Position numbers and translations under genes: made by a program. This document shows, in pieces, positions 7,333 through 63,572 of a DNA stretch of 64,000 nucleotides. The DNA is taken from contig NC_019738.1 in assembly GCF_000317515.1 (NCBI RefSeq), positions 1,937,623 through 2,001,622 of the forward strand, read 5' to 3'. The notes beneath the pieces were generated by a model. That model had not been told where the DNA came from. It did not search any database and saw nothing but the letters and a program-made list of their open reading frames with translations. Every line of letters starts with the position of its first letter. Position 1 is the stretch's first letter. Origin of the DNA: Allocoleopsis franciscana PCC 7113 (GTDB taxonomy: Bacteria; Cyanobacteriota; Cyanobacteriia; Cyanobacteriales; Coleofasciculaceae).

Positions 7333-7422
7333 AGAAAAATAGCTGAAACAGTATTCTTCCGACTGATGTAAGGTTGGCACAGGGCATGGTACCCTGCTCA
7401 CCAACCATTTGGGAGAAAACCA

Positions 7423-44277: not shown

Positions 44278-44561
44278 AAGCGAGTTTTGAAATCATTTAG
44301 CGTCAGTTTAACCAAATTTTGGGCAACGCAAGGAACTTGTCAGGGCAAGTCAGGAAATGTCAGCTGAAACCCACATTCCGCAGGTTGCTGATAGAGTCAG
44401 AGGTATTTTTCAGTACTCTAGAGAGTTTTTTCGGGAGCATCCCAATTTTGCAAGAAGGCAAGAGAACGGGAAGTTTATTCGCGATTTTTACTCGCGAATA
44501 AAGGCCGACTAGGCGGATGTTGCCCTAACTGCGACAATTTAATTAGTTAGGGAGCCTCTTT

Positions 44562-45640
44562 ATGACAATGACACCAGAAGACAAAAAACTTTTAGCCGAC
44601 CATATCAAGGCGATAGCTAAAATTCTCTATAAAAATACTCCACAAGAGAAAATTGAGACGTTAGAGGGTATTGAAACAGCGGTGCGCGACCAAGTGCTAG
44701 AACATGTCAGCCCCCAAATAACCTTTTTTTTATCGGAGAAAAGACGGGAACAGAATCGGGACGCATCCGAACGATAAGAAGTTGTGTGGGTCGGATAAAA
44801 ATCACTCAAAAACAAGCGTCACGTTTAGGAATTGAGCCGTATCGACGGTTAAGTCCTCTTCTGGAAAAATGCTGTTTATTACTTGCAGCAAATGAATCAT
44901 TTCAAGATGCAGAGAATGACCTGAAAGTCTTGACCGGGGTAGAAGTAGGTCACAGCACTCATCATCGCCAAGCCCAGAAAGTAGAGCTATCGCCACCTAA
45001 TATTAAACAAAAACTGACAGAAGTTTGTCTCGATGGTGGGAAAGTGCGTTTACGCTCACAGGAAAAAGGTAAACCCGCCTACTGGAAGGAGTATAAAACC
45101 GGACGACTACAAGGAATATATTACGGAGCCTTCTTTCAAGATAATTTTTCTCTAATTAATTGGGTGAACAGCCAAAACCTGGCTCGAACCATTTATTGCT
45201 TGGGTGATGGACACGATGGGGTGTGGAACCTATTTGCACAAATAGCCGACGACCAGACCCGACAAGAAATTCTTGACTGGTATCATTTGAAAGAGAACCT
45301 CTATAAAATTCAGGCATCGAAAAAGTTTTTAGAACAAATCGAAGCAGATTTGTGGCAAGGAGTGGTCGAAGAAGCGATTAGTAAACTCCGGAAAACTAAC
45401 TATGTCGGGGCTACTAACTTTATAAGTTATCTACGTAAACATAGGCATCGCTTAGTCAATTATATGTACTTTCAAGCCGAACAATTAAGTTCGATTGCTT
45501 CGGGAGCTGTAGAGTCTGCGGTCAAACAGATAGACAAGCGGCTACAAATAGTCGGCGCTCAATGGAAGTCCCAAAATTTACCGCAAATGCTGCAACTGCG
45601 GTGCGCTTATCTGAATCGACAGCTTGCTCCAAGCGCTTAA
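44562..45640 (+). CDS. IS transposase, orfA plus orfB, predicted to be fused by programmed -1 ribosomal frameshift at U UUU UUA (44726-44732)
   Basis: orfB is in the -1 frame relative to orfA and is open upstream through the slippery site. orfB carries GDGHDG...DWYHLKEN, acidic residues of a possible DDE-type catalytic core. Confidence 0.6.
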
Positions 45641-45719
45641 AAAACCCAAAAACAGTATGAAAAGAAGCACGCTGCTTTTTTTCGCGAGTTACAATCGCGA
45701 ATAATTAGGATTTATCTTT

Positions 45720-46130
45720 ATGCCTCGAAAGACTTCCAAGGATATTGAGCGAGATAAACTCGCTCGATTTGAGCGTATTAAAAAGGCGATAGCAGCGTTA
45801 GAAAAACAACAAAGACAAATATTAAAACAGGGTGAGCTGGCTCCATCCGGGGCTTGGGTAGCGCGTTATCAAGTTCGGCAAAATAATAAGAAATATTGGT
45901 ACTACAAATTACAAGTGCCGACTCCATACTTCCCATGCGCGACCTCCGAAGAGTTGAGTAAATACAAGCATCTGGGGAAAGCTGGTACTACTGACCATAT
46001 AGATGCTGTCATGTCTGTTTTTAGGCGTTCTGTTATCGATGAGATACAGAAGCTCATCCGTTCCCTAGATGATTGCTTGCTGGATATTACTTCTGGAGCC
46101 GAGCAGGAGGAAGAAAAACCGCAGGATTGA
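45720..46130 (+). CDS. IS-borne passenger ORF3, copy B
   Basis: Identical to copy A orf3. Confidence 0.45.
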   Translation: MPRKTSKDIERDKLARFERIKKAIAALEKQQRQILKQGELAPSGAWVARYQVRQNNKKYWYYKLQVPTPYFPCATSEELSKYKHLGKAGTTDHIDAVMSVFRRSVIDEIQKLIRSLDDCLLDITSGAEQEEEKPQD

Positions 46131-46503
46131 ATCTCCCGAAGTATTCGCGATTATTACTCGCGAATAATGGCTGTCCCTTTATTTTTGCACAATTGGGATG
46201 CTCTCGTTTTTTCTGAAAAAGGCGATCGCAAAAGACGTTTCCAGTATGTTATTGATGATGATAATCACAACGACTCAGCGTTGACTTCAATGAAGGCATC
46301 AAAAGCCAAGGAAATACAACGCTAATTAGTGAGCATATACTGCCGCCCAGAAATAGTGACAGATTCAACACAGCCCAATCAGCTCAAGCCACCGACTCAG
46401 CCAGCATGATAATAACGCCTCGCTTCGGTTCCCAAAAAGCGGAGGATTTTCTGTCGTTCCGGTGTCAGATTAGTAATGTGCTCCACACCATCGACAATCA
46501 ATT

Positions 46504-49500
46504 GTGACAGTTGCGTACGTCCTGATAGAGTTTGACAAACGATATACTTTGGGAAACGGATGGCAGTCCTTCATCGGGGAGCATTCAATGATTACCCTGC
46601 CTGGAATTACTATCCACAGCAAAATTTATGAGAGCTTAGCTTCTTTGGTGTATCGGGGCATCAGAGAGCAAGATGATTGTGCAGTGATTGCCAAAGTTCT
46701 CAAGCAGGATTATCCCTCTCCTCAGGAATTAACTCGCTATCGGCAGGAGTATGAAATTACTCGTTTTCTCAACATTGAAGGCGTAGTCAAGGCATACAGC
46801 CAGCAAGACTACCAGCGCACGCTGGTTATTCTTTTGGAAGACTTTGGTGGAGAGTCTTTAGAATGCTGGATGCGGCAACAGTTAGACTTCTCTCCCATGC
46901 CGTTGTCGGTTTTTCTGAAAATGGCGATCGCCATTACTGATACTCTAGGCAAAATCCATGCGGCTCATGTCATCCATAAGGACATTAATCCTGGCAACAT
47001 TGTCTTTAATCCGAGGACTGGCGTTGTCAAAATCATTGATTTTGGCATTGCCACTCGCTTCAGTCGCACCAATCCCACCTTCAAAAGTCTCCATCTTCTA
47101 GAAGGAACCCCCGCCTATTTGTCGCCAGAGCAAACCGGACGAATGAACCGGATGCTCGACTATCGCACTGATTTCTACTCGCTGGGTGCAACCTTCTACG
47201 AACTGTTGACGGGACAATTGCCGTTTCCCACCCGTGATCTCCTGGAACTAGTCCACTGTCACATTGCTACACCGCCGATTCCTCCACACGAAGTTAGGGG
47301 TATGGGGGATGGGGTGTGGGGTGTGGGCAGGGATGGTTCATCATCGACCAGGCATACAATTCCTAAAGCAGTTTCCGACATTGTGATGAAACTGATGGCG
47401 AAGAATGCAGAGGATCGCTATCAGAGTGCCTGGGGCATCAAAGCAGATCTAGAATGCTGTGCTCAACAACTGGCAGAAACGGGTCAGATTAACGCCATAT
47501 CGTTGGGACTGCAAGATGTTTCCGAGCAGTTCCGCATTCCTCAAAAACTGTATGGGCGAGAAGCGGAGATTGCAGCATTATGGGTAGCGTTTGACAGAGT
47601 GACGGGGAATCGGGAATCGGAAGTCGAGAATCGGGAAAAACACCCCACACCCTACACCCCACACCCCACACCCTACACCCCACACCCCACACCCCACACC
47701 CTACACCCTACACCCTCATGCAGCGAAATGATGCTGGTCTCTGGTTACGCTGGCGTTGGCAAAACAGCATTGGTACAGGAACTCTCTAAACCGATTACCG
47801 CAAAGCACGGCTATTTTATCTCTGGCAAATTTGACCAATTCCGGCGCAACATTCCCTACAGCGCGATCGTTGATGCTCTGCAAAATTTGGTGCAGCAACT
47901 CTTGGGAGAACCCAATGAACAGGTGGAAGTATGGCGATCGCGTTTACTCACTGCTTTGGGAAGCAACGGACAAATTATCATAGATGTCATTCCCGAAGTT
48001 GAGTTCATTATTGGCAAGCAGCCCCCTGTGCCCGAAGTTGGAGCAACTGAGGCACAGAATCGCTTCAATCTTACGTTTCAAAGGTTTGTGCGGGCGTTTT
48101 GTGCAAAAGAGCATCCCCTAGTCATTTTCTTAGACGATCTACAGTGGATCGATTCTGCGACGTTGAAGTTAATCGAACTCGTCTTACTTGATGAGCAAAT
48201 CCAGTATTTGTTTTTGATCGGAGCCTACCGAAATAACGAACTGACTCCAACGCATCCGGTGGTCTTAACGCTCTTAGAACTGCGAAACCAGGGAGCAGTA
48301 TTTCAGGAAATCATCCTGACCCCCCTCAATCCCCCCTTGGTAAGGGGGGAAGTAAAGGGGGGTGGCAGTGGAACCTGGCTGAGATTGAAGCTCAAGATAT
48401 CACCGATAATGTGGTGGAGTTGCTGCTGCGTCAGTTGCAAAAATTACCGGAAGCAACACAGCAAGTTCTCTCCATCGCTGCTTGTGTTGGGTCTGAGTTT
48501 GATTTAGAAACGTTGGCGATCGTTTGCGAAAAATCACCGAAAGCAATTTTCCAGGATTTATTAGAAGCAATACAATCTGGATTAATTCAACCTTTGTCTG
48601 AATTGGACGAAGACTTGTTGGTTCAAGAGTATAAGTTTCTGCACGATCGCGTTCAGCAAGCGGCTTATGCTTTGATTGATGAATCGCAGAAACAAGTGGT
48701 TCATCTCCAAATCGGTGGCAATTTGCTCGAAAAAACTTCACCAGAGCAACGATCCGATCGGTTGTTTGAAATCATCGATCATCTCAATCAGGGAATTGAG
48801 CTAGTCACTGCTCAACCAGAACGAACTGAAATTGCCAGATTGAATTTAATAGCAGGTCAGAAAGCGAAGGCAGCAACGGCTTATGAAGCCGCGTTTAAGT
48901 ATTTCACTACAGGGATTCAACTTCTCAATCCAGAGAGTTGGCAGAGTGAGTATGACCTTACTTTAGCGCTGTACTCAGAAGCAGCAGAAGCAGCATATCT
49001 TCATGGTTGCTTTGATGAGATGGAACAATTCGTAGAAGTGGTACTCGTTCACGCTAAGACAGTGGTTGACAAAGTGCAGGTTTACGACAGCAGAATTCAA
49101 AGACATTTGTCACAGGGCAACCTGAAAGAAGCACTTAAAATTGGATTGGAAGTGTTAAAGCTTCTGGGAGTGATTTTACCAGAAAATCCAAGTGAGTTAG
49201 ATGTTCGAGGCGGATTGGAGTCAACGGCTGCACTACTCGCTGAACGAGAAATTGAAGACTTGATTAATTTACCAGAGATGACTGCACCAGAACCGCTAGC
49301 AGCAATGTCAATCCTAGCGAGTATTGGAGCGACTGCGTTTATAGTTTCGACAGCACTACAGGTACTTATTGCGTGCAAAATGGTAAATTTATCGCTCGAC
49401 TACGGCAATTCTACCTGGTCACCAATGAGTTATGCTGCCTATGGAGTTGTTCTATGTGGAGTTGTTAAAGACATTGAACTTGGTTATAAATTTGGCAAAT

Positions 49501-52500
49501 TGGCTCTCGGTTCGCTAGAACGATTGAATACCAAAAAAAGGGATGCTAAAGCATTTGTGGTATCGGTTGCCCTAATCATGCACTGGAAAGTGCATCTTAG
49601 GAACACAATACCCATGCTGATTGATGCTTATCAAAACGGAGTGGACACTGGAGACTTTGAATTCGCTGGCTATGCTGCATGTGACGTGTGCTACAACTCG
49701 TTTTTCGTCGGTGAGGAACTCACCCAACTGGAACAGAAAACGGCAACATACAGCAAAGCAGTTGATCGAATCAGACGGGAAAGCCCCTCGACTTGGATTG
49801 CAATAGTGTGGCAGACCATTCTTAATTTGCTAGACAGGTCTGAGAATCCCAGTCGCTTAGTTGGTCGAGTGTGTAATGAAGAGCAGGCATTACCACACGC
49901 CCTTGAAGTTAAAGATGGAACTGCAATTCAAATGCTATATCTGCACAAAGTTATACTGTGTTATCTATTTGAAGAATATCATCAAGCTGTACAGAGTGCT
50001 ATTCTGGCAAGGCAACATTTTGAAGAAGTGACAGCAACAAAGGTTTTACCTGTATTCTGTTTCTATCATTCTCTAGCGTTTTTGAGTCTATCGCTCGATG
50101 CTTCAAACTCTGAAAAAGTAGCTTGGCTAAACTGTGTTAACACCAACCAAGAAAAGATGCAGAAATGGGCAGAACACGCCCCAATGAATTATCTACATAA
50201 ATTTTATCTAGTCGAGGCAGAGAAAGCGCGAGTCTTAGGGCAATTTCTTGAGGCTGAAGAGTTTTATGAACGGGCGATCGCAGGTGCTGCTGAAAATGAG
50301 TATATCCAGGAGGAAGCATTAGCTTATGAATTAGCGGCTAAGCATTATCTAGCGCGAGGTCGAGAGAAAATTGCTCAAACTTATATGAAAGAGGCGCACT
50401 ATTGCTATAGTCGCTGGGGCGCGATCGCTAAAGTTAAAGACTTAGAAAAACGCTATCCACAGTTCTTTTGTCAGTCGTCTAGAGCCGCTTCCGCATCAGT
50501 TCCTATTACTGCTGAAACTATCTCTAATTCCTTCCATACTGCTTTCGATTTAGCAGCAGTGATGAAAGCTTCACAGGCGATTTCTCGTGAAATTGAACTG
50601 AAGCAATTGCTGCGATCGCTGATGCAAATTTTAATTGAGAATGCTGGCGCACAAACCGGATATCTGATTTTAGAAAACTCAGGAGAATGGTCGATTGAAG
50701 CGGCTTGTGAACTCAATGCCGAGGAGAATGCTTGTGCGACTCAGGTGTTACAGTCTACTCCAATTGCCGCTCAATTGCCAGAATCAATCATTCAATATGT
50801 GATTCGGACTCTGAAGCCTGTCACCTTAAATGATGCGACTCGTGAAGATGCTTTTATTAATGAGCCATACATTCAACAGAACCAGCCTCAATCTATTTTC
50901 TGTTTGCCGCTGCTGAATCAAGCCAAGCTGGTCGGTGTATTGTATTTAGAAAATCGGTTAGCCGCTGGAGTATTTACACCAGAGCGATCGCAAGTCTTGC
51001 AGCTATTATCGACTCAAGCCGCAATCGCCATCGAAAATGCCAACCTTTACTCAGAACTGCGGGCTAAGGAAAGCAAGATCACCCAGTTCCTCGAAGCGAT
51101 TCCGGTGGGAATTGGGATCGTGGATGCGACGGGTCGCCTTTACTATACCAACCAATGCGGCAATCAACTCGTGGGCAAAGAGACTGATCCTTCCATCGCA
51201 CCAGAGCAGATCTCAGAGGCTTATCAGCTTTATGTAGCGGGAACGGATCAAGTCTATCCAGCGGAGAGCTTGCCTATTGTGCAGGCATTAAAGGGCGAAC
51301 GCATCAGGACTGAAGATATAGAAATTCGTCGAGATCATGTCTCAATTCTACTTGAGGCACGGGGAACACCAGTTTTTGATCAACAGGGCAATATCATTTA
51401 TGCGATCGCTACCTTTCAGGACATTACGGAGCGCAAACAAGCCGAGAAACTCCTAGCTGACTACAACTGCACTTTAGAGCAACAGGTTGCAGAACGAACT
51501 GCTGCGTTACGACAAAGTGAGGCTAATTACCGCAACCTGCTACAAACCGCGAATTCAGTCATCGTTCGCTATGATCCGCAAGGACGGATTCACTACATCA
51601 ACGATTATGGGGTAAAACTTCTGGGCTATGAAGAACATGAGATTTTAGGGCGAACCTTATTTGAAACCATCCTTCCAGATATCGAACTCTCTGGACGCGA
51701 TATGAAACCCTTTGTCCATGATTTACTTCGTAATCCTCAATCGTACCCGCGAGGTGAGGGTGAAAATTTGTGTCGAGATGGTCGGCGAGTTTGGATGGAG
51801 TGGTCGAATCAAGCCATTTTCAATGACCAGGGAGATGTCGTTGAAATCTTATCGGTGGGCAACGACACCACCCAGCGTAGACAAGCAGAAGAGGCATTAC
51901 AACGCAGTGAAGCCAAGTTCCGAGCTATCTTTGCAAACTCCCAGGTTGGCATCTACCGCACCCGCATCGGTGATGGATTAATTCTTGATGCCAATCAACG
52001 CTTTGCAGAACTGTTTGGCTTTGATTCACCCCAAGAGATGATTGGAATTGAACACACTATAGGCTATTGGGTCAATCCCAGCGATCGCCAACGAGGCATT
52101 GAAGTGATGAAGCGGGATGGGGAAGTGCGAAGCTTTGAAGCACAGTTGCAAAAACGAGATGGGACAGTGTTTTGGGGACTTTTCTCTTCCTATCTGAATG
52201 CAGGCGATGACTACATCGAAGGGGTGCTTGCAGATATTAGCGATCGCAAACAAGCAGAAGCAGCCCTACAAGTCTCAGAGTCAAAGCTACGGACTCTAAT
52301 TGAGGCAATTCCCGATCCATTGTTTGTATTCTCTGCTGAAGGGCGATTCCTTGAAATAATGGTACTGGAACCAAATCTGCTATGGCAACCCTTTGAGGAG
52401 ATGATTGGTAAAACTATGCATCAACTCGGAAGGGAAGAAGCTGATGAGTTTCTAGGTTATATTCAGCAGGTACTGAGAACCCAACAAATCCTCACGGTCG

Positions 52501-53237
52501 AGTATGGTGCGTTTCTAAATGGACGAGAAATGTGGTTTTCGGCTCGCATTGCCCCAATCAGCCACGATCAGGTGATTTGGCTGGTGCGAGATATTACGGC
52601 GCAGAAGCAAGCAGAAGCCACCTCGATTCTGGAAGAGCGTAACCGCATGGCACGCGAAATTCACGACACACTCGCTCAGTCGTTTACGGGCATTCTGGCT
52701 CAGGTGGGAGCGGCGAAACAGGTGCTAACGGATGATTTAGAAGCAACTGGGGCACATCTCGATCTGATCAAAGAATTGGCGCGAACTGGACTGACTGAAG
52801 CGCGGCGATCGGTTGTCGCGCTCCGTCCTCAGCTTTTGGAGGAAGGCAGTTTACAAAGTGCTCTCCATCGTCTCGTCGCTCAGGTTAGAGCTGCCGCAAT
52901 GGATACCACTTTGTACTATGAGATTGAGGGTGCAGTGTATGCTCTACCCAGCGAAGTCGAGAGTAACCTACTGCGGATTGGGCAGGAAGCCTTAACCAAT
53001 GCGATTAGACACGCCCATGCTGACGAAATTCGAGTGGAGCTAGTCTACAAGTATGATCAGTTTTTGTTGCGCGTAAAAGACAATGGACAGGGCTTTGGAG
53101 TGGGCAGTATTCCCTCCTCTGAGGGCTTTGGCTTACTCGGCATGAGCGAGCGGGCAGAGCGCATCGGTGCACAACTCACGATTCGGAGTCAACCCGGACA
53201 CGGAACAGAGATTATTGTCACCATCGATCGGGAGTAA
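46504..53237 (+). CDS. Giant multidomain signalling protein: Ser/Thr protein kinase - AAA/STAND ATPase - TPR-like - GAF - 3xPAS - HisKA_3/HATPase histidine kinase (HstK-like); frame interrupted at 48331-48374
   Basis: Kinase HKDINPGNIVFN...DFGIA...PAYLSPEQ. Walker A GYAGVGKTAL. GAF region around aa 690-850 of the second ORF. PAC ends (ITERKQAE, DISDRKQAEAAL, ITAQKQAEA). H-box EIHDTLAQSFTGI, with a GFGLLGMSERAE ATPase. Two ORFs (46504-48507 and 48411-53237) overlap in different frames across a palindromic repeat insertion. Confidence 0.75.
47296..47335. repeat. Heptanucleotide tandem repeat block (GGGGTGT/GGGGATG type), translated within the kinase domain
   Basis: ggggtatgggggatggggtgtggggtgtgggcagggatgg encodes RGMGDGVWGVGRDG. 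Confidence 0.7.
47605..47715. repeat. Heptanucleotide tandem repeat blocks: (GAATCGG)n then (CCCCACA/CCCTACA)n, about 11 units, in inverted orientation to the 47296 block
   Basis: Encodes NRESEVENREK then HPTPYTPHPTPYTPHPTPHTLHPTP. A 21-nt periodicity keeps the frame. Confidence 0.8.
48331..48374. repeat. Inserted copy of the C6-TTGGTAA-G6 palindromic repeat family inside the giant kinase gene (about 44 bp, not a multiple of 3)
   Basis: Flanking codons read ...IILTPLN | insert | LAEIEAQ... in frames that differ by one nucleotide. Confidence 0.65.
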
Positions 53238-53244
53238 GCTCACG

Positions 53245-53874
53245 ATGAGCCAAGCCACGACCATTCGGGTTCTAATTGCGGACGATCATGCTATCTTTCG
53301 GCAAGGATTAGCCACGATTATTAACCGTGACCCTGATATGAACGTGATTGCCCAAGCGGAAAATGGGGAACAAGCGATCGCGCTATTTGAGGAACACCAA
53401 CCGGATGTCACGCTCATGGATCTGCGAATGCCTGAAGTTGAAGGAGTTGCCGCCATCGGTGCAATTCGTGCTATTGCTAAATCTGCTCGGATTATTGTAC
53501 TAACCACGTATGATAGTGACGAAGATATTTACCGGGGATTGCAGGCAGGAGCCAAAGGATATCTGTTGAAAGAAACTGAACCAGACGAGCTTCTGAATGC
53601 GATTCGTACCGTTTATCGGGGTCAGCAGTATATTCCGCCCGATGTGGGAGCAAAATTAGCACAGCGACTCAGCAATCCAGAACTGAGTGAAAGAGAACTA
53701 GAAGTACTTCGCTCACTAGCACAGGGAATGAGTAATGCGGAAATTGCGGCGGCTTTGAGTATTGGTGAAGGCACGGTTAAATCTCATGTCAATCGGATTT
53801 TGAATAAGTTAGATGTGAGCGATCGCACCCAGGCTGTGATTGTTGCGGTTAAGCGCGGCATTGTTAGTTTGTAG
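53245..53874 (+). CDS. NarL/FixJ-family response regulator (REC plus LuxR-type HTH)
   Basis: IRVLIADDHAIFRQGL receiver. C-terminus ELEVLRSLAQGMSNAEIAAALSIGEGTVKSHVNRILNKL. GGAG Shine-Dalgarno before the ATG at 53245. It is the cognate regulator for the HisKA_3 kinase upstream. Confidence 0.85.
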   Translation: MSQATTIRVLIADDHAIFRQGLATIINRDPDMNVIAQAENGEQAIALFEEHQPDVTLMDLRMPEVEGVAAIGAIRAIAKSARIIVLTTYDSDEDIYRGLQAGAKGYLLKETEPDELLNAIRTVYRGQQYIPPDVGAKLAQRLSNPELSERELEVLRSLAQGMSNAEIAAALSIGEGTVKSHVNRILNKLDVSDRTQAVIVAVKRGIVSL

Positions 53875-54271
53875 GGTGTACTTTCGATCAAATGGAGATT
53901 CTAACTTAAGTTAGAGTCAGCCTTCTACTCTGCGATGGCAGGGTTACTCTATCAATTTGTACTATAAAACTTTTAACTCTCTATAGACGACAGCTTGAAG
54001 GCGATCGCCTATATTGAGTTTATGCAAATAGAAGTGCATCCAATCAGGCAAATCATGCTCGTGGGTGGTGGTTACCCTTTATAGCAAAAGGCAGAAGGCA
54101 GGAGGCAGAAGGCTTTTATGTTTTTTACTGGTATAGCAGTCGCCAAGGCGATTAGAACAAATGCCCCAAAGCTAATTGTCAATCCCAGCTTTTGCAATGT
54201 CCTAACGGTTGTGGCGGTTGCTATACGTGGTCGTTTAAGCCGTTCAATCTGTCCTAAGAGGCTGTTTGTAA

Positions 54272-54802
54272 ATGATTATGAAGTCATCAATCAATACATC
54301 ATTGACCTGGAAAACAACGTTGTCATTTGTAACCCTTGCCACCCTACTCATTCTGCTGATTGGCTGGCTCATCAAAAATCAAGTATTGCCAGTCAAGACA
54401 GTTATAGATTACAGCGCATGGGAAACCAACTTTATACAATTTTGGATCTGGGTGGCTATTGGAGTTGGGCTACTACTCCCTGGCATTGCTTTCTTGGTTT
54501 GGCTGCGTTATCCCGAACCTCGAAAAATTTTAGGCTTCTATTTACTAGTTTTACTTGTTCAGATAATAACTGAACAAATTTTAAGTAGCATTTTGTTTCC
54601 CAGTTTACTGGTAATTATCGGAACTATTTACACGATTTATCGGATTTGGCAATTATGGCAGAGTCAACAGGTTGTAAATAAAAATACTCAACTCAATACA
54701 TTTAGCCCAAAAGTTCTTAATAGTTTATTGCATCTCTTACTACTTTTTTGGTCAATCAATTTAGCAGTTCTCTTAGTTTTGTGTTTTCCTGCCATTGTAT
54801 AG
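54272..54802 (+). CDS. Hypothetical polytopic membrane protein
   Basis: 4-5 hydrophobic helices. No recognisable motif. Confidence 0.4.
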   Translation: MIMKSSINTSLTWKTTLSFVTLATLLILLIGWLIKNQVLPVKTVIDYSAWETNFIQFWIWVAIGVGLLLPGIAFLVWLRYPEPRKILGFYLLVLLVQIITEQILSSILFPSLLVIIGTIYTIYRIWQLWQSQQVVNKNTQLNTFSPKVLNSLLHLLLLFWSINLAVLLVLCFPAIV

Positions 54803-54925
54803 ATGGATGCAGAATTTATTTACCGCATCAGTACGTGATTCAACAACGGGTGGAACGGGCGAAATCGATGTTATCGAAAACGGATTTAACGAACTTTGGG
54901 GGTTTAAATCCCCGTCCCAAAACGT

Positions 54926-54958
54926 AATTGCGAATTGCGAATTGCGAATTGCGAATTG
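54926..54958. repeat. STRR-like heptanucleotide tandem repeat (AATTGCG) x 4.5
   Basis: aattgcgaattgcgaattgcgaattgcgaattg, read directly. Confidence 0.8.
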
Positions 54959-54961
54959 TTT

Positions 54962-55065
54962 TAACCATTGCTGATATTGCTTTCCAAACCGGGTTTTCCA
55001 GTCAGAGCCATTTGAACCAATAGTTTAAGCGAATTACTCGAATGACACCAAAGCAGGTTCGTTAA
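54962..55065 (+). pseudogene. AraC-family regulator C-terminal remnant with in-frame stop
   Basis: Translation IADIAFQTGFSSQSHLNQ*FKRITRMTPKQVR* matches the last AraC HTH helix consensus (...GFSSQSHFSRxFKRxxGxTPxxYR). There is no upstream ORF. Confidence 0.5.
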
Positions 55066-55162
55066 TTCCACAAGAATCTGACAAATCATTGTAAGAATTT
55101 GAAAGAAGTCGAGCCTTGGAACTCAATACACTTTAAATAAATAGAACTAGGAGAATCCAATC

Positions 55163-55756
55163 ATGGTCAAACAGCAATCTGTAGACGAACAAGCAAATGG
55201 AAAGGCAACTAGTAATCTGACACCAGCCCAGGAGTTTTTGCAAGAACTCTGGGATGAGCATCTGCGGCTTGAGTTTGACGCTCACAACACTGAAGATACT
55301 CTCGCCACGATGGTTGAGGATGCTTACGTTAACGGCATTCCGGTAATGATTGGGGGAGTAGGAAAACCGGCACTGCGCGAGTTTTATTCCAAGTACTTCA
55401 TTCCACAGATGCCGCCGGACATGGAGTTGACTCCGGTCTCGCGCACAATCGGGACTAATCAACTCGTCGATGAAATGCTAGTTAAGTTCACTCATACCAT
55501 CCAGATGGACTGGATGCTACCTGGCATTGCTCCGACTCTTAAACGGGTTGAAATGGCATTGGTAGTAATTGTTCAGTTTCGTGACGACAAGCTAGCCCAC
55601 GAACACCTCTACTGGGATCAGGCGAGTGTATTGGTTCAACTCGGTATGCTTGATCCGGGTACACTGCCCGTTGTAGGAGTTGACAGTGCGCGCAAGGTAC
55701 TTGATCCGAACTTGCCCTCAAACGCACTGATCGATCGTGCCAGCGATCGCAACTAA
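55163..55756 (+). CDS. SnoaL/NTF2-like ester cyclase family protein
   Basis: The C-terminal LAHEHLYWDQASVLVQLGMLDP resembles the ester-cyclase/SnoaL_2 tail (EHWD..D...QLG). 197 aa. Confidence 0.5.
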   Translation: MVKQQSVDEQANGKATSNLTPAQEFLQELWDEHLRLEFDAHNTEDTLATMVEDAYVNGIPVMIGGVGKPALREFYSKYFIPQMPPDMELTPVSRTIGTNQLVDEMLVKFTHTIQMDWMLPGIAPTLKRVEMALVVIVQFRDDKLAHEHLYWDQASVLVQLGMLDPGTLPVVGVDSARKVLDPNLPSNALIDRASDRN

Positions 55757-56085
55757 GTGCAGGAGCCAGCAAATATCAATGCCTAAACCCGCCATTTTGC
55801 AACCAGGATCGTACTCATCCTGGTTGTAGGAGGTGCTTCTTATTGCTGGCTCCTACACGTATTGCTCATTGAGTTTTTGACAAAGTGACACAGCCATTCA
55901 CAACAAGAGGTAACTATCATAATGCTGAAAGACAAGGTTGCTTTGGTGACTGACTGTAAAAATTTTAACTCGCTATAGAAGACAGCTTGAAGGCAATTTC
56001 CTATATTGAATGTATGCAAATAGAGATGCAGTCAATGGATTGAGCAAGTCAATTGCAAAGTTCCGTACTTGCTGCAAACGTAAAA

Positions 56086-56645
56086 AAATGAACGACGATC
56101 GCAGCTACAGTTCCTTACTTGTACCCCCCTCAACTCAAGATTGGATGCAAGGTGTGCTGAGTGCCAAGGTCGTGCTGGTGATGTATGGAGACTATCAATG
56201 CTCTAGAAGTGCGGACGTTTACAGGATAATTCAAAGAATCAAACAAGAGCTGAGTGCTTCTTTTGGAGAAGATTATTTATGCTTTATCTTCCGTCATTTT
56301 CCGCAAACACAGATTCATCCTCATGCTCAACGAGCCGCCGAAGTTGCTGAAGCCGCCGCTGCACAAGGACAATTTTGGTTGATGCACGATACTTTATTTG
56401 TTCATCAACAGAAGTTAGAGAACGGTTACCTGATCGAGTATGCCAATGATTTAGGGCTTGATATGCCTCAATTTCTCAAAGATGTGTCTAAACAAGTGCA
56501 TAGCGATCGCATCAATGAAAATGTTGAAGGCGGAATACACAGTGGAGTAACAACTGCTCCAGCCCTATTCATCAATAACATTCGATATGCCGGACGCTGG
56601 AAGATGACAGAGTTAATGACAGCCATTGTTGCTGCAAATCACTAA
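56086..56645 (+). CDS. DsbA-like thioredoxin-fold protein (CxxS variant)
   Basis: VVLVMYGDYQCSRSADVYRII is a thioredoxin-like active-site region with CSRS. Thioredoxin_4 layout. The probable start is MNDDRSY; the ORF track begins at 56010. Confidence 0.6.
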
Positions 56646-56853
56646 GCTCTATTCATAACTGGTCAACCGTTAGTGATTGATAACAGATATACAGTGAGTT
56701 CATCAAGCCTCGTGAATGAGCAACTTGTAAATGCTCGGTTTTAATCTCAGGAATAAGTGCCTCCAATGAAGCTAGCGGATTTTAGTAAGCACACCGCTGA
56801 GGCAATTCGATTTGAACTATTCAATCAATAAGTTTTACACAAGGAAAACAATG

Positions 56854-57228
56854 AAAACACTCTTTAAAAGAGTCACATTATTCTTCACTCTGCCTATCTG
56901 TATTTCAGGTTATTTCTCCTTGCCTGCTGCTGCTGATTCTACAGCCGACCTCATCTTGAGTACCCAATGCCAGGGCGGTTACACCATTAACATTTGGCGA
57001 AACTATCAGTCTGGTGAACTGCTTTATCGTGCCATCAGTCCTAACGGTAATTTAAGTTTGGGTGGAGGAACCAGCCAGGCGACTGAAGGCGTTCGAGTGT
57101 ACAAATTTGGGAGTGGCAACTATGAATATTGGGTTTGGGATGGGACGTTGGATGATCCACAGGCTGGGACATTAGAGGTCTATCAAAACAACCGCCTTTT
57201 AATGCAACAAGCTTGTACGAGAAGCTGA
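56854..57228 (+). CDS. Small secreted protein of unknown function (signal peptide, 2 Cys)
   Basis: MKTLFKRVTLFFTLPICISGYFSLPAAADS is a signal peptide. The mature part is ~95 aa with a Cys pair (QCQGG...QACTRS). Confidence 0.45.
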   Translation, partial: KTLFKRVTLFFTLPICISGYFSLPAAADSTADLILSTQCQGGYTINIWRNYQSGELLYRAISPNGNLSLGGGTSQATEGVRVYKFGSGNYEYWVWDGTLDDPQAGTLEVYQNNRLLMQQACTRS

Positions 57229-57462
57229 ACTTTATTCACTGGTGGATTGGGACTATTTCTCTGAACCAGAACCCTACCTGAGTTATCGCAAATGCTTTGT
57301 TCCCGTGGCACAAAAAAGTAACTGGAATACCTTTAGGTGGCTCAATTTACAACATGACGAGAAACCATGACCATTACGCTGCTTGATTGACAAAACTTTT
57401 CTGTAGGTTGGGTTCGCGATACTCAACTCAACCTTAGACACGCACGAGTAAAGGAGACAACG

Positions 57463-58443
57463 ATGAGGATCAAAGCAACCCAAGGAAAGCAGGGAAGCGG
57501 AGCGGAAGGGAAAGACGCAACTTACGTCGAGGCTGCCGGGTGGGGGAAGTATCGGTGGTGGCGGTATGTTCTGGGATTAGTCATCATCTTCTTTGTGGGG
57601 CTGGTGGTCGGCGGCATCGCCATCCCCCGCATCGCGTTCCTGTTTGGCGGTCAGGAGGCGCTTGCGGCGGTCAATCGGCTGGATTACGCTGCGCTCGGTC
57701 TCGTGGGGGGCTTCGTTGCGTTCAGGGCGAGTTTTCTGTTCTTCCTCGCGGGAATCCTGATCGCCGTCACCCTCATTCACCAGCGTCATCCCCGGACGCT
57801 GGTCACAGCGCGGGAAAAGATTAGCTGGCGGCGTGTCGGTCAGGGGTTTGTGGCGTGGTTCGTGCCAGTCTGGCTGATCGCTGGGCTGGGACAGTACTTC
57901 TTGTATCCCGACACCTTCTCTTTTAACTTTGACCTCACAACGTTCGCGCTCTTCGTGCCGATCGCACTGATTTTCGTTGCGATCCAGACCACCACAGAGG
58001 AGCTTTTCTTTCGCGGCTACATTGTGCAGGGTGCGAGTATTGTTTGGTCTAACCGCGTGTTTCTGGCGCTGGTGCCAGCCACGATCTTCGCCCTATCGCA
58101 CCTGCTCAACCCGGAGGCAAGTGCGGGCGGTTGGCTCACGGTATTCTTCAACTACTTCCTCGTTCCCGGTCTGGTGTGGACCGTGGTTTCGTTGATTGAC
58201 GGAACCACCGAACTCGCCATCGGCGTACACTTCGCGAACAACATCGGCGGCAATCTCTTGATGGGCGTAGCCGGAAGCGCCGTAGCCGGAAGCGCCGTGA
58301 CCGCGCCGACTCTATTCACAGTCAGCAAGTTCCACGCGACCTACACGGCGCTATCGATGCTGATTGTCGTACCCGTGTTTCTGGCGATCGCCTACGGGGT
58401 GTTCAAGCAGGAGTCGCCCCAATCCGTTTCTCAGAGCCACTAG
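57463..58443 (+). CDS. CPBP-family (CAAX protease/Abi) intramembrane metalloprotease, GC-rich gene
   Basis: Motif 1 EELFFRGY, motif 2 FALSHL, motif 3 HFANN. Multiple TM helices. GC content is visibly far above the window average. Confidence 0.8.
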   Translation: MRIKATQGKQGSGAEGKDATYVEAAGWGKYRWWRYVLGLVIIFFVGLVVGGIAIPRIAFLFGGQEALAAVNRLDYAALGLVGGFVAFRASFLFFLAGILIAVTLIHQRHPRTLVTAREKISWRRVGQGFVAWFVPVWLIAGLGQYFLYPDTFSFNFDLTTFALFVPIALIFVAIQTTTEELFFRGYIVQGASIVWSNRVFLALVPATIFALSHLLNPEASAGGWLTVFFNYFLVPGLVWTVVSLIDGTTELAIGVHFANNIGGNLLMGVAGSAVAGSAVTAPTLFTVSKFHATYTALSMLIVVPVFLAIAYGVFKQESPQSVSQSH

Positions 58444-58516
58444 AAGGGTCGTTGGTGACCCCGGCAAATCCCGAACCCATCAGCAACTGAAGTCAGCAAC
58501 CCGATAAAAGGAGTCA

Positions 58517-58961
58517 ATGATCATGCCTCGTGTTTCTTCAAATCACCTGCGGGAGTCGGGAAAGCCCCCTTCCGCATCCTCGGCTCGGTCTAGCAAAACC
58601 TCCCGTCCGGGCTGGCCCGAGATTATTGTCGGACTCGTTGTCTATTTAATTGTAGGGTTCGGAGGCGTCTCGCTGTTCAAGCAACTCGGTCTTCTCACCC
58701 CTTGGCGAGGAGCTGCTCTACCGAGGCATCGTCACCAACGCCCTGCTGCGCTACGGTCCGTTCGCTGGGGTCGTGGGTAGCACTGTGATCTTTGCCCTCA
58801 TGCATGGGATCAACAGCATCTTTCCCGCTGCTGTGGTGGCTGGTCTTGCCACCGCCGAGGTCTTCCGTCGCAGTGGATCGATCTGGCCGGGTCTCGTCGT
58901 CCACTTCGTTTTCAACCTGCCCTCGTTCCTGCTGATGGTGCTGTTCACCAGCACGGGCTAA
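58517..58961 (+). pseudogene. Second CPBP-family protease, frameshifted (N-terminal TM part in frame 2, catalytic part in frame 0)
   Basis: Frame 0 of 58683-58961 gives GEELLYRGIVTNALL...IFALMHG...HFVFN (motifs 1-3) but has no start codon after the TAG at 58653. Frame 2 from 58517 gives the TM helix, then runs on to a stop at 58778-58780. Confidence 0.6.
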
Positions 58962-58989
58962 TAGGACAGATCATCTGGAGATTAAACCA

Positions 58990-59781
58990 ATGGTAATTCT
59001 GAAACAATTTGGGATTTTATTTGTATTGGGCAGTGTCGGAATTGTCATGTTCACGATCACGTCTATTCCTTTAATCGAGCAACAGTTAGCGAAACTGTCT
59101 CCAGAAAGACTGGAAAAAGTACCTCCATTGTGGACTTTAATGCTTCTGCAAGGACTACAGTATTCAGTTCTACTGGCAATCAGCATTCTAATCGGCATTG
59201 GTTGTGCCTATCGCGTTGGATTAAACTCCCATTTGATTGATCATTGGGTGTTTCATACCACTAAGTCTCCATCTTTTGCTATCGAGATAAAGTGGAGTTT
59301 GGGTGTGGGTGCAGCGGCGGCGATCGTTCTCCTGTTGCTCGATCGGTTGATGCAACCTGCTCTACCTGAAGCGCTACGGGCAGCCAATAATCCAGAGCCA
59401 AGTGGGTTGAATTTGCTTACAGCAATGTCCTATGGCGGCATCACTGAGGAAATTCTGCTGCGTTGGGGTTTAATGTCGCTGCTTGTTTGGATCGTGTGGA
59501 AAGTTCTAAAACAAGGCGTTACGTTGCCCAGTCAAGGGATTTACCAGGGTGCGATCGTTCTAGCCGCGTTGGTATTTGGACTACTACACCTGCCAGCGAC
59601 TGCTGCGATCGTTCCCCTCACGACCGTTGTGATTATTCGAGCATTGTTACTGAATGGAATTGCGGGAATTGCGTTTGGCTGGCTCTTTTGGCAATACTCG
59701 CTAGAAGCTGCAATGTTAGCCCACATCAGCGTTCATGCTTTTACCTTTGTTCTTAACGGTTTACTGGCAAGGTTGGTTTAA
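58990..59781 (+). CDS. Third CPBP-family (Abi) intramembrane protease
   Basis: TEEILLRWG, FGLLHL and HISVHAF...LNG motifs. 6-7 TM helices. Confidence 0.7.
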   Translation: MVILKQFGILFVLGSVGIVMFTITSIPLIEQQLAKLSPERLEKVPPLWTLMLLQGLQYSVLLAISILIGIGCAYRVGLNSHLIDHWVFHTTKSPSFAIEIKWSLGVGAAAAIVLLLLDRLMQPALPEALRAANNPEPSGLNLLTAMSYGGITEEILLRWGLMSLLVWIVWKVLKQGVTLPSQGIYQGAIVLAALVFGLLHLPATAAIVPLTTVVIIRALLLNGIAGIAFGWLFWQYSLEAAMLAHISVHAFTFVLNGLLARLV

Positions 59782-59897
59782 GTTTTGGAATAGATCTCGT
59801 AGGGCTATCACTGCCCATAAAGCTTTACTGTGAAAGGTTTTAAAGATGGTGGGCGATGCCCACTACTTGAATTGATGCTCAACTCTACAGTTTTAAG

Positions 59898-60197
59898 GTG
59901 GTCAATCACATGATTCAATGCAAAGATTTTGCGCCTCGAATTACTGAACGGGGACCCTTCGGCGGACCTTCCGAGTATGAATCTTTTTCTGAGGTTGTGA
60001 GTGCTGTCAATCAGTGGATCGAAAGTACAACGATACAGGTAATCAATGTTGAAACCGTTGTTTTACCTGATCGGATTGAAGGCACCAGTGATGATGTCTA
60101 CGGAGTGACGACCAGTAATGCTTTCCACCCAGTGATGATCAGTCAGGGGCTTGCAATCAAATGCTTTCAATGTGTGCGTGTTTGGTACAGAGAATAA
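59898..60197 (+). CDS. Hypothetical protein
   Basis: ORF only. Confidence 0.3.
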   Translation: MVNHMIQCKDFAPRITERGPFGGPSEYESFSEVVSAVNQWIESTTIQVINVETVVLPDRIEGTSDDVYGVTTSNAFHPVMISQGLAIKCFQCVRVWYRE

Positions 60198-60217
60198 GCT
60201 TCACCAGAGAAGAAAGA

Positions 60218-60589
60218 ATGAAACGATCTACCTTGTTTACTTTCCTGTACCTCGCGCTGGGAGTCTGTCTGACGGCGATCGCGTTTGGATACCCAAACCT
60301 ACCTTCGGGCCTTCAAACTAGCCTGTTGATCAGTGCAGGAGTGTCCTACATCGCTTGTATTTTCAATCCATCTTGGCGGGAGAGGACAATCCGCTTCTAT
60401 CGCAGCCGCAATTCATCGGTAATCCTATCCTCGTTGGTGATTGGATTCACTATTATTTGGATAATTTGGGAGGTTCAAAGTCAGAACTGGACGATGGAAG
60501 CTATTTTACGAGCGTTTTCGCGGCTAATCGTTGTTTTACTGTTTGCTGAAAATATTGTGATTATAAGGCAAGTGAATCCTGAAAATTAG
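60218..60589 (+). CDS. Hypothetical small membrane protein (3-4 TM)
   Basis: MKRSTLFTFLYLALGVCLTAIAFG... is hydrophobic. GAAAGAA precedes the ATG. Confidence 0.4.
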   Translation: MKRSTLFTFLYLALGVCLTAIAFGYPNLPSGLQTSLLISAGVSYIACIFNPSWRERTIRFYRSRNSSVILSSLVIGFTIIWIIWEVQSQNWTMEAILRAFSRLIVVLLFAENIVIIRQVNPEN

Positions 60590-60634
60590 GGATGACAATC
60601 TGCAAATTTCTGAATCGCTCGATTCATCGTTCTG

Positions 60635-61153
60635 TTGATGAAAACCGCTTTCACAGAGGTTGAACCGAATAGTACAGATATCGAGTTGAAGTGCAACACT
60701 GGGATGAGCATTATGGTGCAGCATGAATGGCAAGATGAAACACGACAATTGGCGATCGCACCTCGCCTGTGGCTCTGGTGGACATTGGCGACTACAATTT
60801 TTAATATCGGTCATGCCATTGAATTGACAAACTTTAGTATCTCTGAAGTTCAGCCTTTAGCTGTGGGATTGGAGAGAATTGCCAGCAACCCAATAGCGGT
60901 GCTGCAAGCGGTATTGGACTGGACAGGGGGGCAGCCGTTTCTGACTCAAAAAGTCTTTCAACTGATTCAGAAGGCTTCTGAACCAATTCCCGCAGGAGGA
61001 GAAGCGCAGTGGGTCGAGACTTTAGTGCAAAAACAGGCGATCAACAACTGGGAAACCTCCGATGATCCAGAGCATCTGAGGACAATTCGCGATCGCCTTT
61101 GCCGATGCCGTTCCGGCGATCGCATCCTCAATTCGTTGAAGTTGGGCACTTAA
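60635..61153 (+). pseudogene. Fragment of an AAA-like-domain (pfam14516-type) NTPase-associated protein
   Basis: AVLQAVLDWTGGQPFLTQKVFQLI matches the conserved ...L.WTGGQPFLTQ.LC.L segment found after AAA-like domains in cyanobacterial STAND proteins. There is no ATPase core upstream. Confidence 0.45.
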
Positions 61154-62207: not shown

Positions 62208-63572
62208 TTAGCAAGGTTTGGAAGAATGATTTTTTTTAAATTCTATCCAAGTCAACAAAGAAATTATCACAAAAGCCAGTGTATCTACAAACGGAAAACC
62301 ATAGTAAATTCCATTAACTCCAAAAAATATTGGTAAAATCAAAAATATTGGTAAAAATAAAACTAATTGTCTTAACAGGGTAATAAATCCTGCCATTTTA
62401 CCATTACCTATAGACTGAAACAAGGCAATACTACAGGATATAAAAGAAGCAAATGGTAGGAAAAAAACAACCAGGCGAAAGTTTAGTAAATCATTATAAG
62501 TAAAAGCAAAATTTGGTATTAACCAGCTAAGAAATATTTTGGGATCTAATTGTAAAGGTAGCCAGATTAGAATTAAAAAAATGGTTCCTCCTATTCCAAA
62601 AATTAAGTAGGCATCCTTGATTCTTTTATAGTCTCTAGCTCCATAATTCATACCAATTACTGGATTTAGGGCTTGCACAAATCCATATAAAGGAGTGATT
62701 ACCAAGGAATATAAGCTAATCGTTGCTCCCGCGAAAGCAATATCACTATCCGTTCCATAGTAAGCGATTGATTTAAAAAACACGATTTGTTGAACTATGC
62801 CTATGACTTGCATGAGCATTACTGATGTCCCTACTGATAGTATTGTTGGTAGTAAATCTACTGCAAGAGTAATTTGTTTGGGATTAACCGAAATCAAACT
62901 TTTACCGGAAATAAAGTATGTACAATTTACAAAACAATAAACTACACCTGAGATAACTGTAGCCCAAGCAATTCCTTTAATTCCCAAATTAAATACACTC
63001 ACAAAGAGAGGATTTAAAATATTATTAAGCACAACATAAATTCCAGCAAATAAGCTCGCTAGTGCAATTCTACCTTCAGCTTTTATTAACTGACTAGAAG
63101 AGACGGCTACGACCAAAAATACTGACCCCAACAGATAGGTTTTAAAGTACTCTGAACCATAGGCAGCTACTTCACCTTCTCCTCCCATAAAGGAAATTAA
63201 TTCATCACTAAAACTGTATCCAAAAATAGTGATAAAAGAAGAAATAATGACACTTATAATTATCAAGGTACCAAATATTCTTGACTGAGTTTTGGTATCT
63301 CCTGAACCAATGGCTCGACTGAGGATTGAGGCAGAACCGACTCCGACGGACATGCCACATCCAATAACAATAAACGTGAGTGGCAAAGCAAGGGATATAG
63401 CGGCTAAGGCAGTTTCACCAATAAGTCGTCCGGCAAATAAAGCATCAAGAAAAGTATTCAAGGCAATTAGCAGCATTCCCAGAATACCGGGAGTTGATAA
63501 CTTGAACATCAGTTTAACGAGATTGCCATTGAGGATCTCATTGGTCAGTTGAGATTGTTTGTGGGAAGTCAT
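62208..63572 (-). CDS. MATE-family efflux transporter
   Basis: 454 aa, about 12 TM. The N-terminus LVKLMFKLSTPGILGMLLIALNTFLDALFAGRLIGETALAAISLALP is MatE-like. Very AT-rich. Confidence 0.75.
   Translation of the reverse strand: MTSHKQSQLTNEILNGNLVKLMFKLSTPGILGMLLIALNTFLDALFAGRLIGETALAAISLALPLTFIVIGCGMSVGVGSASILSRAIGSGDTKTQSRIFGTLIIISVIISSFITIFGYSFSDELISFMGGEGEVAAYGSEYFKTYLLGSVFLVVAVSSSQLIKAEGRIALASLFAGIYVVLNNILNPLFVSVFNLGIKGIAWATVISGVVYCFVNCTYFISGKSLISVNPKQITLAVDLLPTILSVGTSVMLMQVIGIVQQIVFFKSIAYYGTDSDIAFAGATISLYSLVITPLYGFVQALNPVIGMNYGARDYKRIKDAYLIFGIGGTIFLILIWLPLQLDPKIFLSWLIPNFAFTYNDLLNFRLVVFFLPFASFISCSIALFQSIGNGKMAGFITLLRQLVLFLPIFLILPIFFGVNGIYYGFPFVDTLAFVIISLLTWIEFKKNHSSKPC

Follow-up and report, generated by a model that had tools for sequence, protein, structure and literature searches.

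The GC-rich CPBP protease genes of Allocoleopsis franciscana PCC 7113 as probable cargo of a mobile island widespread in cyanobacteria

The window analyzed in this work, that is, the whole stretch of 64,000 nucleotides (positions 1,937,623 to 2,001,622 of contig NC_019738.1) from the cyanobacterium Allocoleopsis franciscana PCC 7113, harbors on its forward strand three adjacent genes of the CPBP/Abi family of intramembrane proteases, hereafter g1 (57463-58443), g2 (58517-58961), and g3 (58990-59781). We propose, with a probability of roughly 0.7, that this trio is the cargo of a mobile island widespread in cyanobacteria, in which each cassette keeps its own base composition, and that it does not serve toxin immunity. 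The original prediction, made from the sequence of the window, had described g1 and g2 as recently imported from a high-GC donor and had placed the trio in a locus for the production of, and immunity to, a toxin or a secondary metabolite. What had been observed is largely right, whereas the interpretation is right only as far as the mobility of the DNA is concerned: the block is horizontally mobile, though as part of a cyanobacterial island of about 14 kb.

The compositional anomaly itself is real. Indeed, in a sliding-window analysis the region 57463-58961 has a GC content of 58.5% versus 45.7% for the whole window, and it ranks first among all 1500-bp windows (z = 3.56). The GC content at third codon positions (GC3) of g1 is 0.737, while the 36 open reading frames (ORFs) of the window with at least 200 amino acids (aa) have a mean of 0.444 and a standard deviation of 0.079 (z about 3.7); the C-terminal frame of g2 reaches 0.78. 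Third positions are therefore raised in G and C, but to about three quarters rather than to almost all of them, as had been stated. The GC profile delimits a block at 57439-58974 whose edges match the edges of cassette homology, since the homology with other loci begins at 57439-57462 and that of the g3 cassette at 58961-58974. The block does hold the antisense ORFs that had been noticed, as well as extra ones in other frames; all are expected because GC-rich DNA holds few stop codons, and no coding evidence was found for them.

The comparison with other cyanobacteria changes the meaning of this anomaly. Across about 30 cyanobacterial hosts, the GC content is 0.56-0.59 for g1 (GC3 0.69-0.77), 0.58-0.63 for g2, and 0.46-0.48 for g3; for the other cassettes it is 0.43-0.49 (o95, also listed as o99), 0.43-0.48 (o123, also listed as o142), 0.43-0.47 (the DsbA cassette), and 0.49-0.52 (the SnoaL cassette), and the overall or local GC content of the host loci in this comparison runs from 0.44 to 0.57. 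The metagenome locus L004, co-linear with the window over g1, an intact g2, g3, o95, and o123 at 86-89% DNA identity, exhibits the identical GC step between g2 and g3. Since each of the three genes has a constant GC content in every host, the contrast is inherited with the cassettes and gives no sign of a recent import. The composition of g3 had been called host-like, and its values in PCC 7113 (46.2% GC, GC3 0.45) agree with this; they are the same in all hosts, so that the likeness to PCC 7113 is a coincidence. A lesson for genome scans is that a sharp GC anomaly, first explained by recent import from a donor outside the phylum, turned out to be a stable, gene-specific signature of cassettes across dozens of hosts.

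The search for relatives points in the same direction. Among the best 120 matches for each of g1, g2, and g3, every protein bears a cyanobacterial name or is an unnamed metagenome protein, the named ones span many orders, and none is named outside Cyanobacteria. The close homologues of the trio (60-92% identical) are all cyanobacterial. A scan of species-representative genomes retrieved cyanobacterial relatives of g1 at 60-87% identity; the best relative outside this phylum is a protein of a Nesterenkonia metagenome-assembled genome (MAG), 44-45% identical and lying on a contig with 66% GC, followed by Anaerolineales proteins at about 36%. Thus, the actinobacterial or proteobacterial best hits that BLASTP had been expected to return for g1 and g2 were not obtained, and a recent arrival from a high-GC donor does not agree with two genes that are GC-rich in about 30 cyanobacterial hosts and whose best matches include no non-cyanobacterial name. 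It had also been stated that best homologues coming all from close cyanobacterial relatives in syntenic positions would speak against an import; the best homologues do all come from cyanobacteria with a conserved cluster order, yet from distant carriers rather than close ones.

On the basis of its blastn conservation with related loci, the island is a same-strand array of about 14 kb at 46528-60800 of the forward strand, containing the trio. The related loci are labeled L001 and so on where they have to be told apart; L088 is the locus of Synechocystis 6803, and L085, L086, and L089 are annotated plasmid copies. The island is mobile and occurs on chromosomes and large plasmids in several cyanobacterial orders, with an overall DNA identity of 82-98% across them; the region of the kinase and the regulator at its left-hand end, for instance, shares 83-91% with Nodosilinea, Thainema, Leptolyngbya, Stenomitos, and Calothrix (blastn). 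A large plasmid of Gloeocapsopsis dulcis covers 74% of the query at 89.4%. In all, seven plasmids carry large parts of the island, and two of them are typed as conjugative, namely, pNFSY08 of Nostoc flagelliforme and plasmid C of Trichormus variabilis, the latter with g1-g2-g3-o95; further plasmid copies belong to Oscillatoria nigro-viridis PCC 7112, Nostoc sp. MS1, and Chroococcidiopsis. In the majority of loci the order on one strand is kinase, regulator, DsbA, AraC-type helix-turn-helix (HTH) gene, g1, (g2), g3 or a g3-like gene, o95, and o123. Gene content differs between copies, and the cassettes are mostly oxidoreductases and hydrolases: some copies are arrays of more than 27 kb with SDR, NmrA, pirin, cupin, α/β-hydrolase, and RidA genes, and these longer arrays also hold alcohol dehydrogenase, SnoaL/SgcJ, and DUF5996 genes together with repeated AraC-HTH genes, while g1 and g2 are absent from many copies that retain the kinase. 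In the literature we found no description of this island as a unit, just scattered mentions of single Synechocystis genes; an island with 82-98% DNA identity in several orders, on plasmids and chromosomes and even in the model strain Synechocystis 6803, appears to have been overlooked.

The degree of similarity is that of mobile DNA. The synonymous divergence (dS) between PCC 7113, which belongs to the Coleofasciculales, and the copies from Nostocales, Nodosilineales, Leptolyngbya, and Gloeocapsopsis is mostly 0.08-0.6, and a few divergent island copies have values of 0.8-1.45. Single genes give 0.17 (g3 versus Calothrix brevissima), 0.16-0.17 (g1 versus L001, L002, from Fortiea, and L004), and 0.29-0.44 (the regulator versus all loci). 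Synonymous sites are normally saturated between cyanobacterial orders, and hence an island combining these values with such a DNA identity is similar far above the divergence of the lineages that carry it. A partial control is offered by the housekeeping protein CobM, whose 90% cluster draws its named members mainly from close relatives (three Microcoleus strains), with one Stenomitos MAG in addition; the corresponding clusters of SnoaL, g1, and g3 reach across Nostocales, Nodosilineales, Elainellaceae, and Oculatella.

Moreover, the closest relative changes segment by segment. In its backbone, the island of PCC 7113 resembles copies from Nostocales most. SnoaL has 98% and DsbA 90-92% DNA identity to Calothrix. 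The g1 protein is 71% identical to its Calothrix counterpart versus 84-87% to those of Nodosilinea, Almyronema, Vasconcelosia, Elainellaceae, Fortiea, and L004, and the stretch 57700-58000 of the gene is 98-100% identical to L004. The spacer between g1 and g2 and the N-terminus of g2 return to 94-97% with Calothrix UHCC 0171 and T. variabilis, and for g3 the nearest copies are those of Calothrix and of an Elainellaceae MAG. Because the nearest relative differs from segment to segment, the island of PCC 7113 is a recombinant patchwork in which g1 is a replaced allele. Both g1 allele types are GC-rich, so the replacement of alleles does not account for the high GC content. As for the mechanism, the cassettes might have been assembled from sources of differing GC content, and the island might then have spread so quickly that their composition had no time to approach that of the individual hosts.

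A different explanation would be that the genes form an old, vertically inherited cluster in which gene-specific selection (on codon usage or mRNA structure), or else GC-biased conversion between paralogous genes, maintains the high GC3 of g1 and g2. The broadly conserved order of the cluster would fit this idea, and so would the constancy of the GC content and GC3 of g1 even between alleles that are 60-71% identical, with dS up to 0.8. Paralogues for such a conversion do exist: in L003, L004, L010, L011, and L021, g1 paralogues sit side by side, two in one array, 62-65% identical to the g1 of the window and both equally GC-rich; such a copy is placed some 1 kb ahead of the g1 homologue or at another point of the array. 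However, vertical descent is difficult to reconcile with dS values mostly of 0.08-0.6 across orders, with plasmid carriage (two of the carriers being typed as conjugative), with segments whose nearest relatives come from different orders, with the remnants of insertion sequences (IS) at the edge, and with a variable gene content, and we regard it as improbable.

Turning to the proteins themselves, the assignment of all three genes to the CPBP/Abi family was correct, and they are thus members of a known, annotated family: against the PF02517 (Rce1-like) Pfam model, whose gathering cut-off is 22.4 bits, g1 scores 43.3, the C-terminal frame of g2 62.5, and g3 40.0. The triad EExxxR/FxxxH/HxxxN had been attributed to each of them. 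The first two motifs are found in all three and HxxxN in g1 (EELFFR179, FALSH209, HFANN256) and g2 (EELLYR, FALMH, HFVFN), but g3 (EEILLR153, FGLLH196, HISVH245) has HxxxH in the third place. A related 246-aa protein of L001 likewise has HxxxH (HLTVH), and this is a subfamily variant that leaves the Pfam membership unaffected.

The intact g1 encodes a CPBP intramembrane glutamic endopeptidase of 326 aa (AFZ17595.1), and g3 an intact CPBP protein of 263 aa (AFZ17596.1), which is 87% identical to Synechocystis slr0316. Residues E179, E180, R184, F209, H213, H256, and N260 of g1 are invariant in 36 homologues (67-89% identity), and E179, E180, F209, and H213 are so across 92 sequences of the g1, g2, and g3 subfamilies, with R184 and H256 nearly so. 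Purifying selection is at work throughout g1: in a sliding scan, the ratio of nonsynonymous to synonymous differences (pN/pS) is lowest over the catalytic core (0.08-0.3) and highest in the first two helices (0.5-0.77), no stretch exceeds 1, so that the sign of an arms race is absent, and the dN/dS of the gene is about 0.4. Invariant motifs and purifying selection therefore suggest that g1 and g3 are ordinary CPBP intramembrane glutamic endopeptidases and probably active. An AlphaFold2 model of g1 built from a mixed g1/g2/g3 alignment, with a predicted local distance difference test (pLDDT) of 74.8 and a predicted template modeling score (pTM) of 0.75, predicts a polytopic membrane fold like that of Rce1 and SpdC; with the 36 close homologues alone, the pLDDT was 38.9. 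A profile search of the Protein Data Bank (PDB) sequences with the g1 alignment gave zero matches at E-values up to 10.

A particular feature of g1 is a perfect 15-bp tandem duplication (58266-58295; VAGSA VAGSA), called by Tandem Repeats Finder at 58266-58298 with 2.2 copies and 100% matches. It corresponds to residues 270-279, in a low-confidence loop of the model after the HxxxN helix. The repeat had been noticed from the beginning, but it is not private to this strain, the five-residue insertion being common to a subclade of homologues (P0001, P0003, P0005, P0006, P0007, and P0013), although in most of them the two copies are no longer identical.

The second gene had been counted as an ORF like the others; it is not intact. 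Alignments to intact homologues, which are 245-246 aa long, and to the DNA of L004 revealed that g2 is a pseudogene in which 302 bp (about 100 codons) were lost between two GTCTT microhomologies, with the junction and the frameshift at 58689-58693. The N-terminal frame, from 58517, retains 61 homologous residues, and the motif-bearing frame (58704-58961, 85 codons) is offset by one base. The GenBank accessions of g1 and g3 are consecutive, so that no protein record lies in between for g2.

Among known proteins, the Rce1-like endopeptidases such as Methanococcus Rce1 (PDB 4CAD) share with the trio the PF02517 match and the EExxxR, FxxxH, and HxxxN motifs; they differ in that the identity is about 15%, g3 has HxxxH, and g2 is broken. 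To our knowledge, a CAAX-prenylation system is not expected in cyanobacteria. The NCBIfam models of myxosortase-type CPBP proteases (Mrt) scored 22.9 bits for g1 (cut-off 100) and 28.5 and 26.8 for an intact g2 homologue (cut-offs 75 and 130, respectively), and these scores give no support to an identity as a myxosortase-type sorting protease. No protein of the island reached the cut-off of any NCBIfam family.

The CPBP proteins might also be not mainly proteases, acting instead as membrane partners that tune the kinase of the island or of the host, or a cell-wall enzyme. The precedent is SpdC/LyrA of Staphylococcus aureus (PDB 6U0O), a membrane protein of the Abi/CPBP type whose partner is the glucosaminidase SagB, and the constant linkage of the genes to the kinase-regulator pair would be in agreement with such a role. 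However, SpdC/LyrA is 14-16% identical, there is no SagB-like gene near the trio, and the catalytic motifs of g1 are strictly conserved. The near or complete invariance of the catalytic residues across the subfamilies, together with the strongest purifying selection falling on the core, also speaks against such a role; in addition, the island kinase has no clear membrane anchor, and many kinase-bearing copies of the island lack g1 and g2. We therefore consider this role, too, unlikely.

As to toxin immunity, some CPBP/Abi proteins are bacteriocin-immunity factors, and those of lactic acid bacteria (PlnI, PlnLR, SkkI) belong to the same superfamily, often in tandem and near a two-component system. 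It was on such grounds that the trio could be seen as protecting the cell from a toxin or metabolite exported by the MATE protein and made with the secreted protein and the type II thioesterase, g1 and g2 having come recently from a high-GC actinobacterium or proteobacterium. The GC anomaly exists, and the nearest relatives of g1 outside cyanobacteria do come from high-GC lineages, so that a very old high-GC origin is conceivable. However, the close cyanobacterial homologues with the same GC content in about 30 hosts oppose a recent import, and no stretch of g1 evolves as an arms race would require. Besides, the thioesterase and MATE genes lie on the opposite strand, outside the conserved island, and no homologue of either was found near the g1 relatives in the 86 related loci; the small secreted protein (56854-57228) is a floating cassette of the island, with homologues at other positions in L021, L022, and L027. 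When 53.9-64 kb was screened with a crude regular expression for small ORFs bearing a double-glycine leader, none turned up. The annotations of the three annotated plasmid copies list no bacteriocin gene, C39 exporter, or HlyD, and the Pfam matches obtained for the genes called at the Synechocystis locus include no bacteriocin or exporter family. In contrast to the Abi immunity systems, therefore, neither a bacteriocin precursor nor a dedicated exporter was found at the locus of the window or at related loci, and a production and immunity locus, fed by a recent import, appears very improbable.

The MATE gene (62208-63572, reverse strand) is a compositional outlier in the opposite direction, with 35% GC and a GC3 of 0.27, about 2 standard deviations below the window mean, and the adjoining thioesterase gene has a normal GC content. 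PADLOC recognized nothing in the CPBP genes, o95, o123, or the gene of the secreted protein, just generic kinase-domain and HTH matches; the reading as a defense system was dropped, since PADLOC gave no CPBP match.

Least probable of all is an integron-like system exchanging promoterless cassettes by site-specific recombination, which would account for short, reshuffled cassettes of mixed composition on one strand, tightly bounded from the ribosome-binding site to just beyond the stop codon, differing in order between genomes, and in one case with a junction duplicated around an insert (54000-54044 and 55992-56036; a segment present twice around SnoaL in L011), but which was rejected because no integrase is annotated in or beside L085, L086, and L089 or was seen in the window, no attC-like consensus was detected by eye at the cassette ends (a palindrome after SnoaL, at 55754-55861, departs from the attC core consensus), and breakpoints fall inside genes too, which fits ordinary homologous recombination between island variants.

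A further question concerns the function of an island carrying such cargo. The kinase-regulator pair might switch on the whole array, g1 and g3 included, under a particular condition, and g1 and g3, as active glutamic intramembrane endopeptidases, would then cleave or process membrane or exported proteins rather than act as bacteriocin-immunity factors. The CPBP genes travel with a sensor kinase, a regulator, DsbA, and many genes of the oxidoreductase, hydrolase, and RidA type. From this gene context we tentatively place g1 and g3, as membrane endopeptidases, in a silent regulon for stress or detoxification that would be induced conditionally, a possibility that we hold with little confidence. 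More speculative still is the idea that the island is a self-contained module of sensor plus regulon traveling among cyanobacteria, whose cargo would be swapped cassette by cassette, with no integrase, at the repeated AraC-HTH genes and the duplicated promoter-like junctions, and in which the trio with o95 and o123 would form a sub-module, induced by a single signal, for the processing of membrane proteins. The copy of Synechocystis 6803 (slr0311-slr0319) would allow a direct test of such a module. The island offers a tractable way into a regulon that is expressed conditionally and has spread horizontally, and also to what bacterial CPBP proteases cleave.

The chromosome of Synechocystis 6803 harbors a compact copy, consisting of slr0311 (kinase), slr0312 (Rre32), slr0313 (DsbA), slr0314 (hydrolase), slr0315 (SDR), slr0316 (CPBP), ssr0515, slr0317 (NmrA), a RidA gene, and slr0319. 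It resembles the window in order and strand, with 82-87% DNA identity by segment, and differs in a shorter kinase (759 aa), without the Ser/Thr-kinase/AAA part, in the lack of g1, in a g2 reduced to a remnant, and in another set of cargo. Upstream of slr0316, at 9911-9975 of L088, about 65 nucleotides survive from the 3' end of a CPBP gene of the g2 type; hence, the adjacency of g2 and g3 is ancestral, and g1-g2 was lost by deletion in Synechocystis. This locus is among three chromosomal regions enriched in proteins unseen in more than 1000 mass spectrometry runs, and slr0316 was the sole transcript detected (PMC10243305). That these island proteins were never detected fits a conditional expression. 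As previously reported, slr0317 is up 5.7-fold in a lexA mutant (PMC4759255), and slr0312 has been cited as responsive to inorganic-carbon stress (PMC10485101).

Several points weigh against the reading of the trio as cargo of a mobile, coregulated island. No integrase, att site, flanking direct repeats, or defined transfer mechanism was found, the ends examined being only those in the window. The saturation of synonymous sites between orders, used above as the benchmark for dS, is general knowledge and not a value computed for the same genome pairs. The GC3 of g1 stays at about 0.7 even between alleles with a dS of 0.6-0.8, and gene-specific selection or biased gene conversion could contribute to it too. 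The coregulation by the kinase and the regulator is inferred solely from conserved order and orientation. Lastly, the copy of PCC 7113 is partly decayed, with a dead g2, a split kinase, an AraC remnant, and a gene truncated at about 60800 after o123, which suggests that it is perhaps non-functional in this strain.

Concerning the remaining genes, the island begins with a giant sensor kinase with Ser/Thr-kinase, AAA_16, GAF, PAS, and HisKA_3 domains (Pfam; 46504-53237, forward strand as for all the island genes described below), now in two ORFs, 46504-48507 and 48411-53237. The plasmid copies of G. dulcis, T. variabilis, and N. flagelliforme have it as one ORF of 2106-2361 aa. The 2350-aa kinase of G. 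dulcis aligns with frame 1 (residues 1-528, 46588-48327) and then with frame 3 (588-1913, 48363-52325); at the split (48328-48362), a small GC hairpin, CCCCCCTTGGTAAGGGGGG, stands in place of some 59 residues, and the frame changes. In the hydropathy profile, the N-terminal part lacks a membrane anchor, and a single hydrophobic stretch is seen along 1608 aa. At 47297-47715, the gene contains the heptanucleotide repeats GGGGTAT (4.4 copies), GGGAATC (4.7), and ACACCCC (10.9), the last of which encodes an HPTPYTP-like linker. There follows a NarL/LuxR-type response regulator (53245-53874; Pfam Response_reg and GerE), the counterpart of Synechocystis Rre32 (slr0312), which is 94-96% identical across orders at the protein level, with a dN/dS of about 0.07.

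Between the regulator and the trio lie smaller cassettes and their remains. The SnoaL/NTF2-like cassette (55163-55756; Pfam) is 97-98% identical to that of Calothrix in DNA and 98-99% in protein, with a dS of 0.08. Upstream of it, direct reading of the sequence disclosed an AraC-family HTH pseudogene remnant (54823-55066), matching the ends of AraC genes, several of which occur per related locus; it is interrupted by a stop codon and a small repeat element at 54897-54966 (a GGGGGTTTAAATCCCC hairpin and 4.7 copies of AATTGCG), stretches of which, 34-70 bp long, recur at 92-100% identity on many plasmids of Nostoc and Trichormus. The ORF at 54272-54802 is low in GC (35-40%) and encodes 176 aa with several hydrophobic segments; neither Pfam nor NCBIfam recognizes it, none of the 86 related loci holds a homologue, and it is probably a local insertion. 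The stretch 54000-54044 resembles 55992-56036; this junction downstream of the regulator is promoter-like (-10 TATATT) and flanks the segment with SnoaL, the 176-aa ORF, and the AraC remnant. In L011, the segment corresponding to 53820-54044 is present twice, at about 4720-4922 and 7314-7539, flanking SnoaL, and such a duplicated junction around an inserted segment hints at a route of cassette insertion. Next comes the DsbA-like thioredoxin-fold cassette (56085-56645; Pfam Thioredoxin_4/DSBA), the counterpart of slr0313, located right after the regulator gene in most related loci. The small secreted protein mentioned above has 124 aa, a signal-peptide-like N-terminus, two cysteines, homologues at 72-92% identity, and no Pfam match.

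Downstream of g3, o95 (59910-60197) encodes a small soluble protein, the counterpart of ssr0515, which follows g3 in most loci including L088 and has no Pfam or NCBIfam match; o123 (60218-60589), co-linear with o95 in most loci, encodes a small membrane protein with about 3-4 hydrophobic segments by hydropathy. The right-hand edge of the island is marked by a remnant of the next island gene (60664-60799), 90-94% identical to L006, L007, L017, L030, and L038 and 88% to L088. Homology ends at about 60800, beyond which lies an unrelated AAA_35-like fragment; in the ORF 60635-61153, the first 55 or so codons of the next island gene are fused to this fragment. At the other side, about 320 bp upstream of the island, an IS-like element (44432-46206) has 25-nucleotide inverted repeats at 44432-44456 and 46182-46206 and contains the palindrome TATTCGCGA...TCGCGAATA three times; what remains of a DDE transposase is found farther upstream, at 43023-43937. 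Promoter-like and terminator-like sites are no commoner than in shuffled sequence, and we do not claim operon boundaries. Rfam gave no match in the island; at 11620-11696 of the window (forward strand), it recognized the cyanobacterial small RNA CyVA-1 with 74 bits versus a gathering score of 41.4.

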